64,000 nucleotides of DNA from Terriglobia bacterium (GTDB taxonomy: Bacteria > Acidobacteriota > Terriglobia > Bryobacterales > Bryobacteraceae): assembly GCA_963840735.1 (NCBI GenBank), contig CAWIZX010000015.1:31537-95536 (forward strand). Reading direction: 5' to 3'. The notes below the pieces were generated by a model. The model was not told where the DNA came from. It made no database searches and worked only from the letters and a program-made list of their open reading frames with translations. Of this stretch, positions 58,373 to 63,925 are shown piece by piece. How positions within the stretch are numbered: position 1 is the stretch's first letter; the number at the start of each line of letters is the position of its first letter. Position numbers and translations under genes: made by a program.

Positions 58373-59064
58373 GTAACGCATGCCAGAATCTTCGCGCGTC
58401 GATGGCCGTCAACCGTGAACTTGTCCTGCTCTACTGGCAGATCGGCCGCGACATCCTTGACCGGCAGGAACGGGAAAACTGGGGCGCGAAAGTGATCGAC
58501 CGCTTGGCAGCGGACCTCAAGCGAGCGTTCCCGGACATGAAAGGATTCTCCCCGCGCAACCTCGAAATACATGCGAGCGTTCAGCTGAAGCTTGGCCGGA
58601 TGAAGCAATTGTGCAACAGCTTGTTGCACAAATTCCGTGGGGCCACAACGTCCGCATCCTGGACTGCGTCAAGGCTCCGAAGACCGCATCTGGTACGCCA
58701 ACGGGACCATTCAACACGGATGGAGTCGCGACGTTCTGGTTCAACAGATTGAGTCCGGGCCATTGCACCGGCAAGGGAAAGCCGTCGCCAACTTCGACCG
58801 CACCTTGCCCGCGCCGCAATCAGACCTCGCGCGGGACATCACCAAAGATCCGTACAACTTCGATTTTCTCACCCTCGGCGACGAGGCCCACGAGCGCGAT
58901 CTGGAGCGCGGCCTGCTGGACCACCTGCGCCAGTTTCTTCTCGAACTCGGCGTCGGGTTCGCGTTTGTGGGCAGCCAGTACCGGCTCGCCGTGGGCGACC
59001 AAGAATTTTACATCGATCTCCTTTTCTACCACCTGAAGCTCCGCGCTTATGTGGTGATCGAACT
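58373..59064 (+). pseudogene. DUF1016/YhcG PD-(D/E)xK nuclease gene, 5-prime part. It is N-terminally truncated, has three frame changes (about 58570-58700), and is then interrupted by the RIT element.
   Basis: NRELVLLYWQIGRDIL...GFSPRNL / YMRAF / AEAWPDEAIVQQLVAQIPWGHNVRILDCVKAPK / RIWYANGTIQHGWSRDVLVQQIESG...FAFVGSQYRLAVGDQEFYIDLLFYHLKLRAYVVIE. These segments are read across three frames. Confidence 0.85.
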
Positions 59065-59065
59065 A

Positions 59066-59085
59066 TTATGTGGTCGACCACATAA
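59066..59085. repeat. Perfect 20-bp palindrome TTATGTGGTCGACCACATAA at the left junction of the RIT element
   Basis: Read directly from the sequence. Two inverted copies of the element's TTATGTGG motif around a TCGA centre. It lies between the target gene and IR-L. Confidence 0.85.
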
Positions 59086-59181
59086 CAGATCTTCTGTGGC
59101 GCAGCCGGTTATGTGGCGTCGCCGAGTCTTAACCCGGAACTGCGGTCATCTCGTTATCGCGACGCCACATAATCTGTGGTT
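59086..59181. repeat. RIT left terminal inverted repeat (IR-L)
   Basis: CAGATCTTCTGTGGCGCAGCCGGTTATGTGGCG at 59086 matches the reverse complement of 63655..63623 (CAGCTCTTCTGTGGCGGAGTTGGTTATGTGGCG) at about 29 of 33 positions by eye. The inner inverted motif CGCCACATAAT is at 59163. Confidence 0.8.
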
Positions 59182-59254: not shown

Positions 59255-60190
59255 TCACAGGTTGCGAGCGCTTTGGCCTTCATCTCCATGATCGACCTCG
59301 GCATAGACATTCGTCGTGTTGAGCGAAACATGCCCCAGCCAGGCGCGAATGGTGTTGATATCGACACCGGCCCGAAGAAGGTGCGTTGCGGTCGTATGAC
59401 GAATCGTGTGAGGGCTTACGCGCTTCCTTTTCAGCAGCGGCATCTGATGAGATATCCGCTCAACGTACCGCTCAACCATCGTGTGAATGCCGAAGCGGGT
59501 GATTGGTCTGGCACTGCGGTTCAGGAACACGTGTTCGTCCTGTTTACGTCCCGCGATAAGCGGTACAAGTTCTGCCACGGTTTGCGGCCAGAGCGGGCAG
59601 CGGCGCAGCTTGTTACCCTTTCCGCGGACTTGAATGAGGGAGTGATCCCTGGGCGTATTGGCCAGCGCCAGATCACAGACCCTGGCCTGCGCCGCCTCGT
59701 CGGCGCGCGCGCCAGTGTTATAGAGGAACAGCAAGAGGGCGTGATCGCGTCGGCCCTGATCGGTGGATCTGTCGGGCGCGTCAAGAAGGCCGTCCATCTC
59801 CGACTTCTCCAGATATGTGATGGAAGACCTCGGCGCACGCTTCGAAGGAATGGCGCGGAGCTGCCCGCACCAGACGATATGTTCCGGACTGTGCAATCCG
59901 ATGAAGTGAGCCAGCGAGTGAACCGCAGCCAGCCGCTGATTGCGAGTTGCAACGCCGCATTTGCGACTGTCCTCAAGATCCTGCAGGAAAAGCCGGACAA
60001 CGTCCGCCGAGACATCGGTCACATCAAGCTGGTCAATCGCCTTGCGGGAATGGAGCGAGACGAAAGAAACAAGCAGGCAGAGCGTATCCCGGTAACTGTG
60101 TTGTGTGTTTCGGGCCAGATTGCGCTCAGTGACCAGATACTCCAGCAGGAAGCGGCGGACCCAGGGTCCAAGAACGGCTGGGTCAGTCAT
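59255..60190 (-). CDS. ritC: Tyrosine recombinase RitC
   Basis: C-terminal catalytic block PHTIRHTTATHLLRAGVDINTIRAWLGHVSLNTTNVYAEVD. The ATG overlaps the ritB stop by 8 nt (ATGACTGA). Confidence 0.85.
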   Translation of the reverse strand: MTDPAVLGPWVRRFLLEYLVTERNLARNTQHSYRDTLCLLVSFVSLHSRKAIDQLDVTDVSADVVRLFLQDLEDSRKCGVATRNQRLAAVHSLAHFIGLHSPEHIVWCGQLRAIPSKRAPRSSITYLEKSEMDGLLDAPDRSTDQGRRDHALLLFLYNTGARADEAAQARVCDLALANTPRDHSLIQVRGKGNKLRRCPLWPQTVAELVPLIAGRKQDEHVFLNRSARPITRFGIHTMVERYVERISHQMPLLKRKRVSPHTIRHTTATHLLRAGVDINTIRAWLGHVSLNTTNVYAEVDHGDEGQSARNL

Positions 60191-61130
60191 GGCCACCTTC
60201 GGGAGTGGCATACAGTTCGAAACGAAGACTGGCTTCGCGCAGCAACTCCGGGGTCATGGTGAGGTACACCTGAGTCGCGGCCAAATACGTGTGGCCCATG
60301 TAAACGGATAACTGGGGCAGCAGTTTCTGAACGTTCTTGCCCTCGCGGTACCACGACGTCAGCCGGTGGACTGCGGACGTGTGGCGCAGATCATGAAGGC
60401 GAGGCTGACAGCGCGAACCACCCTCGCGGCGCAGTCCGGCGTGCTCCCGCAGTTGCTGGAAGGCTCCCTCCAGGGTATGTATGTTTATGCGTTTGCCGTT
60501 CCTTCCGGTAAAGAAAGGCGATCCCTGTTCCTGCGGATGGCCGCAGGCTTTGCGCAGACCTGCGTAACCGGCGAGGGCTTGCGCCGTATCAGGTCCGACC
60601 GGCACGAGTCGGCTCTTGAAGAACTTCGAGTCGCGGACCGTCAGGACGGCGGACGCAAGATCGACGTCCGCGATTGTCAGGGAAAGAACCTCCGACGTGC
60701 GCAGCGCCGCACCGTACATGAGGAGGAGAAGCGTTCGCACCATGAGTGGATCGAGACGGCCGCGAATGCGTTGATAGGATGCCGTGGAATCGAGCAGACG
60801 GACAAGTTCGGCGTGCGAGTAGATATAGGGTTGGAAAGCAGGCGGCCGTTTCGGTATGACCTTCGGCAGGGGAGAAGCGGCGGTAAAACCGCGGCTAAGG
60901 GCGTATTTATAGAAACCGCGCAGGGCGTTATGTTTGACGTGCCAACTAGCGGTCAGCGGGCCTGTTCCGGCAAGGAAGACATTCACTTTTTCCGGAGAGA
61001 CGTCCGCGAGAACGGCATCGTCTCCGATGGCCCGGCAAAACGCGTTGAGTATCTGAGCGTTGACCTTGAATCGTTCTCCGAGCGTCTTCCTGAAAGTTGC
61101 GTATTGTTCGACGGTGCTTCGAAGAGTCAC
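60183..61130 (-). CDS. ritB: Tyrosine recombinase RitB
   Basis: GAALRTSEVLSL (Arg I), HDLRHTSAVHRL...YMGHTYLAATQVYL. The GTG start overlaps the ritA stop (GTGA). The longer ORF-track start at 61757 lies inside ritA and was rejected. Confidence 0.85.
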   Translation of the reverse strand: MTLRSTVEQYATFRKTLGERFKVNAQILNAFCRAIGDDAVLADVSPEKVNVFLAGTGPLTASWHVKHNALRGFYKYALSRGFTAASPLPKVIPKRPPAFQPYIYSHAELVRLLDSTASYQRIRGRLDPLMVRTLLLLMYGAALRTSEVLSLTIADVDLASAVLTVRDSKFFKSRLVPVGPDTAQALAGYAGLRKACGHPQEQGSPFFTGRNGKRINIHTLEGAFQQLREHAGLRREGGSRCQPRLHDLRHTSAVHRLTSWYREGKNVQKLLPQLSVYMGHTYLAATQVYLTMTPELLREASLRFELYATPEGGHD

Positions 61131-62383
61131 AGCAATCCCCCAAGATCGAAGCTGGCCACTTCGCGTAGGTGAACGAGGTCCACCTTGGCATAGATCCGCG
61201 TCGTCTCCGGTCCGCGATGGCCCAGATGATCTCCGACCTCCTTTAATGACAGCCCTTCGTTGATCAGCCGGGTGGCACATGCGTGCCGCAGCGAGTGGGG
61301 GCCGTGGTGCTTTATCGTTGCTCCGATCTGTCTCAGCCGAAGGCCCACGACCGGCCAGAGCGTACCGCTCTTGATGGGGCGATACGGCGCGCGCATGGTC
61401 AGAAAGACCTCTCGACACGGCGAGGTCGGCCGCGCTTCCCTGAGGTATCGGACGATAGCCGCTCCGACGGGCTGGCAAAGTGGAAACGAATGGTTCCCGA
61501 GCAACTTGGACCGAGTGAAGCTGATCGTCTCTCTCTCCCAGTCGATGTGGTCGAGTTGCAAGCGGGCCACTTCTCCGGCACGGACTCCATACACGGCAAG
61601 CAGCATGAGGATCGCGTGATCGCGGATGGCTCGGGGCCGGTCTCCAGATGTGGAATCCAGCAGCTTTTGCACATCGCCCCAACTTGGAGCGGATGGAAGC
61701 GATTCCTGTTGGAAGACTCGCGGTGCCATGATGGCCGCCGCGATACCGGGAGCACACCAGCCGCGCGTTTCGGCATAGCGAAAAAACGAACGCAGTGACG
61801 AGGCGCAGGTTTGTACGGTGGCGCGAGCGTACTGCTGCTCGTTCACCTTGTTTGCGAGCACTGAGTCAACATCGGCCACTGTGATCGCGAGCAGCGGACG
61901 GTCGGCAACGCAAAGCTGATCGAGGAACTCCTCTACCGAAAAGCAACGCTGTTCAATGGTGGACAGAGCAAGGCCGCGCTCCTTTCGCATGAAGTCCGCA
62001 AACTCCACCATCATCTGGTCGTAGGCTTTCGCCGGCTTGGCCGGAACGGAAAGACGGTTGAGGAAAGTCAGCCACCCGACCGCAACATGTATGAACCGCT
62101 GACGCGACAGACGCGGCTGCAACATGGTCCTCCAGGGTAGTTCCCGGCTGGACCATCTTGTTCCTGCCTCTTCGATTTCCTGAAGTGTGATCGCTTCGTC
62201 GGGCCGTGCGGCTAATTTCAGGTACTCTGCGGCCGCCAACAGATGCTGGGCCATCGTACGCAAGGTGGCTTTGGCCATCTTTTGTCCCGCACAGTGCGCG
62301 AGGTACCGACGGCGTTCCTCTACAAGCGGCCCATTGCACATACGGATCAGCGCGTGCGGGCGCTCGAATAGTTGATCAAACAT
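61127..62383 (-). CDS. ritA: Tyrosine recombinase RitA
   Basis: 418 aa with GVRAGEVARLQL (Arg I) and HSLRHACATRLINEGLSLKEVGDHLGHRGPETTRIYAKVD. Confidence 0.85.
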   Translation of the reverse strand: MFDQLFERPHALIRMCNGPLVEERRRYLAHCAGQKMAKATLRTMAQHLLAAAEYLKLAARPDEAITLQEIEEAGTRWSSRELPWRTMLQPRLSRQRFIHVAVGWLTFLNRLSVPAKPAKAYDQMMVEFADFMRKERGLALSTIEQRCFSVEEFLDQLCVADRPLLAITVADVDSVLANKVNEQQYARATVQTCASSLRSFFRYAETRGWCAPGIAAAIMAPRVFQQESLPSAPSWGDVQKLLDSTSGDRPRAIRDHAILMLLAVYGVRAGEVARLQLDHIDWERETISFTRSKLLGNHSFPLCQPVGAAIVRYLREARPTSPCREVFLTMRAPYRPIKSGTLWPVVGLRLRQIGATIKHHGPHSLRHACATRLINEGLSLKEVGDHLGHRGPETTRIYAKVDLVHLREVASFDLGGLL

Positions 62384-62559
62384 GAATGAATCGGACTCCT
62401 TCTGTGATGAGAAATGTAAAAACTGTCCGACTATACTTGTGCTCGGGCACCGATTTCCGAGCCGGCGAAGATTGCCTTATTACGCAACGATGTGTTCCCA
62501 TAACCTTGGAGGAGGCCCCAGCGGGAGCGGGCTCACAGCCGAAAGGAACATCCGTCCCC

Positions 62560-63381
62560 ATGATGGTGTCTAATCCACCGATGCCGAGGTTTCGAACAGC
62601 GGTTGCATTCAGTCTTTTCCTTTGCGCCGGAGGGCAAGCCCAACAGCAATTCGAGGTCGCCTCCATAAAACTGAGCAACAGCAATGACCCGCGCACGTTG
62701 CTGCAGGTGCTGCCCGGTGGAGGACTTCGGGCGTCTGGCGCCACGTTGAAATTTTTTATGACTTTGGCTTATCAGGTACGCTCTTTTCAGATCCTGGGTG
62801 GCCCCACCTGGATCAGCGTTGATCGTTTTGATGTCATGGCGAACACGGACCGATCTGCTGTCTCACAGAATGATCCGCCCGACCCAACAAAGCTGACAGC
62901 GGCCCAGCTAGGCGGCATGCAGAATGAGATGCGCCCCCGACTTGTCGCGCTTTTGGCCGAGCGCTACAAACTTCAGGTCCATCGTGAAACAAGAGAACAG
63001 CCGGTTTTCGAGTTGGTCGTTGCAAAAGGTGGATCGAGACTTCAGAGCGCAGGCGGCAACTTCGGCGGGTTTCACATTTCAAAGAATCAGTTTGTTGGGG
63101 ACGCCGCGACGATCGAGATGTTGACCACTGCCCTGGCCAATCAAGTTGGTCGCCCTGTCCTCGATCACACCGGATTGGTCGGGACCTTCAATTTTAAGTT
63201 GAATTGGACTGCACCCGACACAGCACCGCCAGTTGAAGGAGATCTAGCGGCCACAGGCGACCAGAGCGGGCCTTCAATATTTACTGCTGTCCGAGAGCAA
63301 GTCGGTTTGGAGCTCAAATCAACAAAGGCTCCCGCGGAAGTGCTGATTATCGACCACGTGGAAAAGCCAAGCGAAAACTGA
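62560..63381 (+). CDS. TIGR03435 (DUF3738) soil-associated family protein, carried as cargo inside the RIT element
   Basis: Signal peptide (AVAFSLFLCAGGQAQ), then QQFEVASIKLSN...ATLKFFMTLAYQV...ILGGPTWI...VIDHVEKPSEN, the family's typical start and end. The start could also be at 62581. Confidence 0.8.
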   Translation: MMVSNPPMPRFRTAVAFSLFLCAGGQAQQQFEVASIKLSNSNDPRTLLQVLPGGGLRASGATLKFFMTLAYQVRSFQILGGPTWISVDRFDVMANTDRSAVSQNDPPDPTKLTAAQLGGMQNEMRPRLVALLAERYKLQVHRETREQPVFELVVAKGGSRLQSAGGNFGGFHISKNQFVGDAATIEMLTTALANQVGRPVLDHTGLVGTFNFKLNWTAPDTAPPVEGDLAATGDQSGPSIFTAVREQVGLELKSTKAPAEVLIIDHVEKPSEN

Positions 63382-63566: not shown

Positions 63567-63652
63567 TTATGTGGCATCGAGTCGAACTCCCGACCTCCAC
63601 CTTCAGGCTGCTGAATCACGAGCGCCACATAACCAACTCCGCCACAGAAGAG
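63567..63652. repeat. RIT right terminal inverted repeat (IR-R)
   Basis: Mirror image of IR-L: TTATGTGGCA (63567), CGCCACATAA (63623), CGCCACAGAA (63640). The 17-bp spacing between the two outer motifs matches the left end. Confidence 0.8.
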
Positions 63653-63925
63653 CTGAAAATTGGTGAGTTCCAGCCCGAACACATCGGCAAGATGCAGTTT
63701 TACCTGGCTGTCCTTGACGACACGGCACGCCTAAAAGCGGAAAACCCCTCCATCGGCATCCTCATCTGCAAGTCGAAGGATCGAACTATTGTCGAATATG
63801 CCTTGCGCGAATCTGCCAAGCCGATCGGAGTGGCAACGTACCGGATGGTCTCAGCTGTGCCGGAGGATATGACCAACGATTTGCCAAATCCCGACACATT
63901 GGCGCGATTGCTGGACGAGTCCTGA
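63650..63925 (+). pseudogene. DUF1016/YhcG nuclease gene, 3-prime part (resumes after the RIT insertion)
   Basis: ELKIGEFQPEHIGKMQFYLAVLDDTARLKAENPSIGILICKSKDRTIVEYAL. This is the E-x-K catalytic motif and the conserved C-terminus of DUF1016 proteins. Confidence 0.85.

Follow-up and report, generated by a model that had tools for sequence, protein, structure and literature searches.

Conserved end layout and lineage-specific targets of RIT elements suggest insertion through dif-like cores and a 6-bp exchange region

The 64-kb stretch of DNA from a Terriglobia bacterium analyzed here (contig CAWIZX010000015.1; "the window" denotes this whole stretch, and positions are counted from its first letter) carries an ordinary RIT (recombinase in trio) element, a member of a known family, which is inserted precisely in a DUF1016/YhcG gene and has 6 bp present twice, once at each junction. 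The insertion measures 4.6 kb, and the array of short motifs discussed below was noticed at its left junction. We think it reasonably probable that the element inserted site-specifically in the E-L-K codons of the DUF1016/YhcG gene, that a 10-bp motif, M (TTATGTGGCG), supplies half-sites that pair into dif-like cores, and that strand exchange took place in the 6-bp sequence, H.

The precision of the insertion is apparent from the target, a gene for a PD-(D/E)xK nuclease. Its N-terminal part (58637..59059, + strand) matches positions 2-78 of the Pfam YhcG_C profile, and its C-terminal part (63656..63925, + strand) matches positions 77-157. The proposed exchange region is present as a left copy, H_L (GAACTA, 59060..59065, + strand), and a right copy, H_R (GAGCTG, 63650..63655, + strand), both of which encode E-L. 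When the two parts of the target are rejoined with one E-L copy, they give a single YhcG_C match over positions 2-157 (E 1.8e-64) and show no gap at the junction relative to 120 of 120 intact homologues; removal of the stretch that runs from the palindrome at 59066..59085 to H_R restores an intact YhcG_C domain. The interrupted gene is a decaying pseudogene with frame changes upstream of the insertion, the DUF1016 N-terminal region (58402-59036) being spread over three frames (open reading frames 58402-58752, 58611-59036, and 58637 onward). When an intact, near-identical DUF1016 gene was sought as a possible empty site, the best full-length match had only 70% identity.

Both ends of the element are built from copies of M. 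The exact pattern TTMTGTGGCG occurs five times in the window against 0.25 expected, always at the element ends, and none of 100 shuffles reached five matches; the 8-mer TTATGTGG occurs eight times against 0.8 expected, with seven of these matches within 59047-59172 or 63567-63632. Copies on the + strand start at 59066 (TTATGTGGTC), 59092 (TTCTGTGGCG), 59109 (TTATGTGGCG), 59172 (ATCTGTGGTT), 63567 (TTATGTGGCA), and 59047 (TTATGTGGTG), and copies in reverse orientation start at 59076, 59163, 63623, and 63640; every copy listed in the original prediction was recovered. At the ritC end, an outer motif (TTCTGTGGCG, 59092..59101, + strand) is followed at 17 bp by a middle motif (TTATGTGGCG, 59109..59118, + strand) and then by an inverted inner motif (59163..59172, - strand) that is part of the inverted repeat I10. 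The ritA end consists of an inverted inner motif (TTATGTGGCA, 63567..63576, + strand), a middle motif 50 nt from the inner 8-mer (63623..63632, - strand), and an outer motif (TTCTGTGGCG on the - strand, 63640..63649). The shared architecture initially described for the two ends, with two direct outer copies 17 bp apart from start to start and then an inverted inner copy, is what the sequence contains, and the middle and inner 8-mers are 48 nt apart at the ritC end, compared with 50 nt at the ritA end. Two copies fall outside the conserved pattern, namely the weak one at 59172, which has no counterpart in relatives, and the one at 59047, which lies inside the target gene. The best inverted repeat between the ends (I1) joins 59077-59118 to 63623-63664, over 42 nt at 81%, and the succession of hexamer, outer motif, 7 nt, and middle motif amounts to 33 bp at the ends of the window's element.

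The same layout recurs in a comparative set of 80 loci from species-representative genomes and 67 from metagenomes (147 in all), to which three annotated plasmid loci were added. All loci were oriented from ritA to ritC, and their ends were found with a tolerant pattern; RitA identity to the window's protein ranges from 95% down to 34% across the set, and the hosts belong to Acidobacteriota, Planctomycetota, Pseudomonadota, Clostridia, Chlamydiota, Bacteroidota, and others. One layout describes 172 ends (149 unique junctions) from the 147 loci, in many phyla. Outward from the genes, it comprises the inner M (TTATGTGG), 48-50 nt, an inverted middle M (CCACATAA), 9 nt, the outer M (CCACAnAA), and the hexamer H; beyond H, the sequence either passes directly into the flank or continues with a 20-bp palindrome (TTATGTG-n6-CACATAA) and an inverted hexamer before the flank is reached. 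The order and spacing recur at about 170 RIT ends as expected for recombinase-binding sites, which is in keeping with the function first suggested for the array. The inner-to-middle distance is 48-50 nt in 166 of the 172 ends, with a variable sequence in between (59117-59164 and 63575-63624 in the window), and this combination of fixed length and free sequence points to a geometric constraint in a putative protein-DNA complex. The layout persists at 34% RitA identity, in a Bacteroides plasmid (L150). The Haematobacter massiliensis plasmid pOT1-5 (L149) encodes a complete ritABC trio, with 39% identity in RitA, and has no recognizable array or palindrome within ~320 bp on either side; this trio may be immobilized or domesticated, or may use a different motif.

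The palindrome of the window, TTATGTGGTCGACCACATAA, has the form TTATGTGG-TCGA-CCACATAA and can be read as two back-to-back half-sites carried by the element. That it stands at one end only, as originally observed in the window, is also conserved in relatives: of the 52 unique loci with two readable junctions, 33 contain exactly one palindrome, 15 contain none, and 4 have one at each end. Elements differ in which side it occupies, that of ritA or that of ritC, and the side even switches between near-identical copies within one genome (L043 and L042 versus L040) that have the same flank beyond the palindrome. What stays constant is its relation to the target, since the palindrome always adjoins the N-terminal half of protein-coding targets, whether DUF1016 or the ATP-dependent DNA ligase LigD. 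It was found beside the DUF1016 C-part in 0 of 20 unique junctions and beside the LigD KxDG part in 0 of 14, and none of the palindrome-free junctions has a flank resembling an N-part. Palindromes with M-like arms accompany targets that are unrelated to one another (DUF1016, LigD, IS66, and group II introns). Where the palindrome center is asymmetric, both of its orientations occur on both sides within one lineage. Covariation of the palindrome arms with lineage-specific variants of the motif gave a weak signal, with too few variant lineages.

Loci with no palindrome at either end include L023 (Burkholderia sp. H160), L081, L090, L018, L046, and L062, and those with a palindrome at both ends include L067, L104, and L120. 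Some loci are flanked by two "right" target halves, which in L023 come from two different DUF1016 genes, and others have a "left" half on either side, in each case next to a palindrome. Inversion between two copies could have generated these two-right and two-left loci as reciprocal products, or they could reflect assembly errors at the inverted ends in short metagenomic contigs.

In conservative site-specific recombination, the two junctions share the overlap sequence within which strand exchange occurs. We call H_L the hexamer between the left flank of the target and the palindrome, H_R the one at the opposite junction, and H_mid the one between the palindrome and the element (GATCTG in the window, read outward from the element; 59086..59091, - strand). 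H_L equals H_R in 18 of the 33 one-palindrome loci, and the two are within one base of each other in 26 of 33, whereas H_mid equals H_R in only 7 of 33. Because it is H, and not the center of the palindrome, that is directly repeated at both junctions, we consider H the likely region of strand exchange, a reading that comes from the comparison of integrated copies.

The neighborhood of H has the features of a recombination core. The outer motif and the palindrome are separated by exactly 6 bp in 59 of 60 unique cases, and H_mid is the spacer of a complete dif-like core made of the outer motif and one palindrome arm, which in the window reads CCACAGAA-GATCTG-TTATGTGG (59078-59099, - strand). 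The consensus of this core is CCACAGAA-GAnnTn-TTATGTGG, i.e., two inverted arms around a 6-bp spacer (also written CCACAnAA-N6-TTATGTGG). Its arms are close to those of dif sites (...ATAA N6 TTATGT...) when compared with dif of Escherichia coli (GCGCATAA-TGTATA-TTATGTTA), Bacillus subtilis (CCTAGAA-TATATA-TTATGTA), and F. alni (GCCGATAA-TGCACA-TTATGTC) (PMC3025954). As each arm of the palindrome pairs with an outer motif into a different dif-like core, we read the palindrome as two half-sites.

This reading departs from the original prediction, which took the palindrome at 59066-59085 for the core crossover site and supposed that targets are chosen for their likeness to the end motif. The palindrome can be read as 7-6-7, which is a plausible core geometry. 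A crossover inside it, however, would split it over the two junctions, whereas the palindrome stays whole at one junction and it is the neighboring hexamer that is repeated at both; the palindrome is thus probably not the crossover site. Together with the data on targets given below, these observations leave the combined scheme, with crossover in the palindrome and target choice by resemblance, a very slim chance.

The side switching of the palindrome could also have a more local cause, namely inversion in place, in which the complete core would recombine with the opposite end and flip the trio; alternatively, the motifs could be operators that control rit expression and have no role in transposition. 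Targets of one kind contain the element in either orientation while the palindrome keeps to one side of the target, which is in keeping with inversion, and the position of the inner motif ~60 bp upstream of ritA in cargo-free elements is in keeping with an operator. Yet inversion needs H_mid to be identical to H_R, which the counts given above seldom bear out, and the same array is present at the ritC end, far from any promoter. Moreover, relatives show signs of real movement, with several copies per genome and many distinct, independent insertion sites, so that an explanation without transposition appears most improbable to us.

The targets of these elements are site-specific, lineage by lineage. 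Within the window's own lineage (RitA identity ~66-100%), DUF1016 genes account for most insertions, which fall in the same codons (E/D-L-K); the left flanks end in ...[V/I][V/I][V/I]-[E/D]-L and the right ones start with [E/D]-L-K...G[Q/K]M.FY. In a sister lineage (~58-62% RitA identity), the target is motif I of LigD, interrupted as ...W-x-Y-E-[I/L] / E-[I/L]-K-L-D-G-Y-R, and Pfam DNA_ligase_A_M is matched from profile position 25; LigD-targeting loci are L004, L005, L052, L103-L123, L129, L134, and L145. Copies in Candidatus Megaera (L071-L073) interrupt the IS66 transposase motif GRKNW[L/M]FAGSD, with Pfam DDE_Tnp_IS66_C downstream. Several further lineages are inserted in the 3' part of group II introns, with D1-D4 RNA and maturase genes alongside (L028, L036-L043, L046, L051, L059, L062, L069, L070, and L148). 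The rejoined flanks and the neighboring maturase genes read as if the intron target were the domain V hairpin; an Rfam scan at these targets matched only D1-D4 models and no domain V, a miss that is expected if domain V is split. The hexamer follows the lineage, being GANCTN in DUF1016 targets, GARATN in LigD, and CGCAYA in introns, with GGACGG, AATGAC, TGGCTG, and others elsewhere. From these junctions, target choice is clearly site-specific within each lineage, each lineage having its own hexamer.

Resemblance to the end motif does not account for this choice. The sequence held to be a mimic of the motif, TTATGTGGTG (59047..59056, + strand), lies inside the window's target and contains a perfect TTATGTGG, 19 bp upstream of the palindrome. 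It encodes A-Y-V-V, and its codons are part of the conserved ...LR[A/C][Y/F]VV[I/V][E/D]LK... motif of the nuclease, in which A/C-Y/F-V-V is maintained. In a set of 14 independent left flanks from DUF1016 genes, this position matches TTATGTGG at 8/8 in the window only, at 7/8 once (L009), at 6/8 once (L019), and at no more than 5/8 in the other 11, and nothing comparable was found in the LigD, IS66, and intron targets. The mimic is also in the wrong orientation and 3 bp too far from H for an arm of a dif-type site. When the 8 target bases that flank H were compared with an ideal arm, the mean number of matches was 2.1/8 and 1.7/8 on the two sides, against 1.8 at control positions. We judge the mimic incidental; the comparison of insertion sites that had been proposed confirms that targets are specific sites, but motif-like sequence is absent from most of them and selection through likeness to TTATGTGGTG is not upheld.

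In the model that we favor, M would be the half-site bound by the recombinases, with three copies per end (outer, middle, and inverted inner), and the palindrome would be two further M half-sites, back to back, that the element carries with it. Recombination between H_L and H_R would excise the element as a circle, whose junction is predicted to read ritC end, H, palindrome, H', ritA end (...CGCCACAGAA-H-TTATGTGGnnnnCCACATAA-H'-TTCTGTGGCG...). This junction would consist of two adjacent, mirror-image dif-like cores (CCACAnAA-N6-TTATGTGG) flanked by accessory half-sites, each core being formed by an outer motif, the 6-bp spacer H, and one arm of the palindrome. The element and the target would exchange strands within H, for which the target supplies a matching hexamer, and the accessory sites on which a RitA/B/C complex assembles may be provided by the middle and inner motifs. 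Use of either core would explain that both element orientations exist, that the palindrome lies beside the left target half, and that the hexamer is found at both junctions. The end layout, the palindrome at one end, the repeated hexamer, the precise break in the target, and the targets particular to each lineage are seen directly in the data; the circular intermediate, the positions of cleavage, and which proteins bind M are what we infer from this arrangement.

Several observations weigh against this model. The hexamers of the window, GAACTA and GAGCTG, differ at two wobble positions; the insertion could be old, which fits since the target gene also has frame changes, or the requirement for homology in H could be less than strict. 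The 15 loci without a palindrome at either junction and the 4 with two call for secondary rearrangements or assembly errors. The target bases beside H do not resemble M, so that likeness to M would not account for recognition beyond H, and all three recombinases would have to share a single DNA motif. Finally, the evidence comes entirely from integrated copies.

A related possibility is that integration proceeds through a single strand, as for the CTX phage or integron attC sites. The inverted ends and the palindrome would then fold into a hairpin whose stem forms a single dif-like site, perhaps with a mismatched center (H versus H_mid), and one strand exchange followed by replication would fix the insertion. 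The predicted junction is indeed a large near-palindrome, and in some elements (L011) the ends are complementary over ~100 bp. H_mid often differs from H, which would give a central bubble such as is known in the folded attP of CTX. Mobilome data suggested RIT intermediates that are protected from exonuclease, although circular junctions were not detected, and a hairpin form was put forward (PMC5737581). Such folding predicts the same integrated layout as a double-strand mechanism. Against it, complementarity between the inner and middle motifs is not convincing past the motif, with a mean of 2.3 further perfect pairs that mostly reflect a longer conserved motif (TTATGTGGCGTTCA) and not covariation; the two ends of the window's element match only over the ~42 nt of I1; and the element encodes no replication or single-strand function. 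We regard a single-stranded route as unlikely, and prefer exchange between double-stranded cores.

The proteins that would act on these sites are encoded by three adjacent genes on the - strand, in the order ritA-ritB-ritC, an order that is the same in at least 80 relatives. RitA (61127..62383) has 418 aa, with Pfam Phage_integrase and SAM-like domains, the latter preceded by ~120 residues; RitB (60183..61130) has 315 aa, a GTG start, and a Phage_integrase match with E 1e-18; and RitC (59255..60211) has 318 aa and a Phage_integrase match with E 3e-29, the tyrosine being in the context NVYAEVD. The ritB gene overlaps the stop of ritA by 4 bp and ritC by 29 bp. All three are tyrosine recombinases in which the Phage_integrase domain spans the C terminus and a catalytic-tyrosine motif is present (TRIYAKVD, TQVYLTMT, and TNVYAEVD). 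Described traits of RITs include an additional core-binding domain at the N terminus of RitA and an additional helix at the C terminus of RitC (Smyshlyaev 2021). RITs are widespread: RitA has thousands of homologues, more than 5,000 of them strong and the closest 96% identical; an exact look-up of the RitA protein returned no record, and no second copy of the element was found within the 64-kb window.

Upstream of ritA, the leader (62384..62437, - strand) holds a conserved hairpin in which an upstream GTCGGAC pairs with a GTCCGAT located between the ribosome-binding site and the ATG. Seven pairs are predicted, six of which show compensatory changes (RNAalifold, 30 leaders), and the hairpin has the same place in L001-L062; it may limit translation of ritA, for example, from read-through transcripts. 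Between this leader and the ritA-side end lies a cargo gene of the DUF3738 family (62386..63381, + strand; Pfam DUF3738, E 2e-49), whose true start is probably near 62557. RITs are usually described with the three recombinase genes alone. DUF3738 cargo occurs in no relative, and the 95%-identical L081 holds a different 344-aa open reading frame at the same spot. The slot, bounded by the inner motif of the ritA side and the leader of ritA, is thus variable in its cargo (L081, L001, L003, L004, L103-L122, and L145), relatives other than L081 having 0.5-2.9 kb of unrelated genes there.

The element of the window is ordinary in itself, and its value lies in an explicit, testable model of RIT movement and in the lineage-specific targets. 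For RITs as a whole, we suggest tentatively, with somewhat less assurance than for the window's own element, that all share this end grammar, that their excised forms present symmetric dif-like cores, and that a 6-bp overlap directs insertion, whichever the orientation, to codons of conserved catalytic motifs (E-L-K of DUF1016, E-I-K-x-D-G of LigD, and IS66) or to domain V of group II introns, which would constitute the first explicit model of RIT transposition. The mechanism becomes testable because the grammar names the likely half-sites for binding, a pair of dif-like cores, the 6-bp region of exchange, the junction expected in a circle, and natural targets. RITs insert at codons for catalytic motifs of nuclease, ligase, and transposase genes, and split DUF1016 or LigD genes encountered during annotation may be RIT insertions. 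This preference may have a bearing on conflicts between mobile elements and host nucleases.

Part of this grammar had been noticed before. A 2023 review lists ~34-bp terminal inverted repeats for RITs, gives target specificity, mechanism, and movement as not tested, and indicates that RIT movement had not been reproduced in the laboratory (PMC10214605), an unexplained palindrome was reported earlier (PMC3414803), and Nielsen et al. (2017) described 47-51-bp imperfect palindromic repeats at RIT ends. Rit recombinases have been classed with Xer as simple tyrosine recombinases (PMC8138268). In the full-text literature, from which Ricker et al. (2013) was not covered, we found no mention of DUF1016, dif-like cores, or a hexamer overlap in connection with RITs. 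The original remark that no published grammar of this kind is known for these elements is accordingly too broad for the inverted repeat and the palindrome, and, Ricker 2013 aside, it holds for the grammar; its novelty is provisional.

The window's element agrees with RITs as originally reported from Cupriavidus metallidurans CH34 (Van Houdt 2009/2012; Ricker 2013) in its overlapping ritA-ritB-ritC trio, ~3.5 kb plus ends, and in the ~34-bp terminal inverted repeat and the palindrome near one end. It differs from previous descriptions in its 1-kb DUF3738 cargo, and the grammar and targets go further than these accounts, in which target specificity is given as not tested and no convincing structure of the sites was identified. 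The likeness to XerC/XerD-dif and to integrative mobile elements exploiting Xer (IMEX), such as the CTX phage, resides in the inverted arms ...ATAA / TTATGT... around a 6-bp center and in the related recombinases. IMEX have no recombinase of their own and target the host dif, whereas the RIT encodes three, carries two cores back to back with accessory copies, and targets conserved coding (DUF1016 in the window) or intron sequence; there is no sign of a role for host Xer or FtsK.

In the TnpI-IRS system of Tn4430, as in RITs, the same motif occurs in an inverted core and in accessory direct repeats, which would influence the architecture of the complex and the direction of recombination. In that system one protein, TnpI, resolves cointegrates, whereas RITs have three proteins, sites at both ends, and new targets. 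Tn554, SE, and GInt resemble RITs in having several tyrosine recombinases, site-specific insertion, and a 6-bp junction sequence that is exchanged or carried (PMC10214605). Recombination of these elements depends on a fourth protein, which is not a recombinase (TnpC, Srap, or GinD, encoded by tnpC, srap, or ginD), whereas in RITs only the three recombinase genes are conserved, the cargo being lineage-specific, and the ends are inverted, with repeated copies of a single motif and a palindrome.

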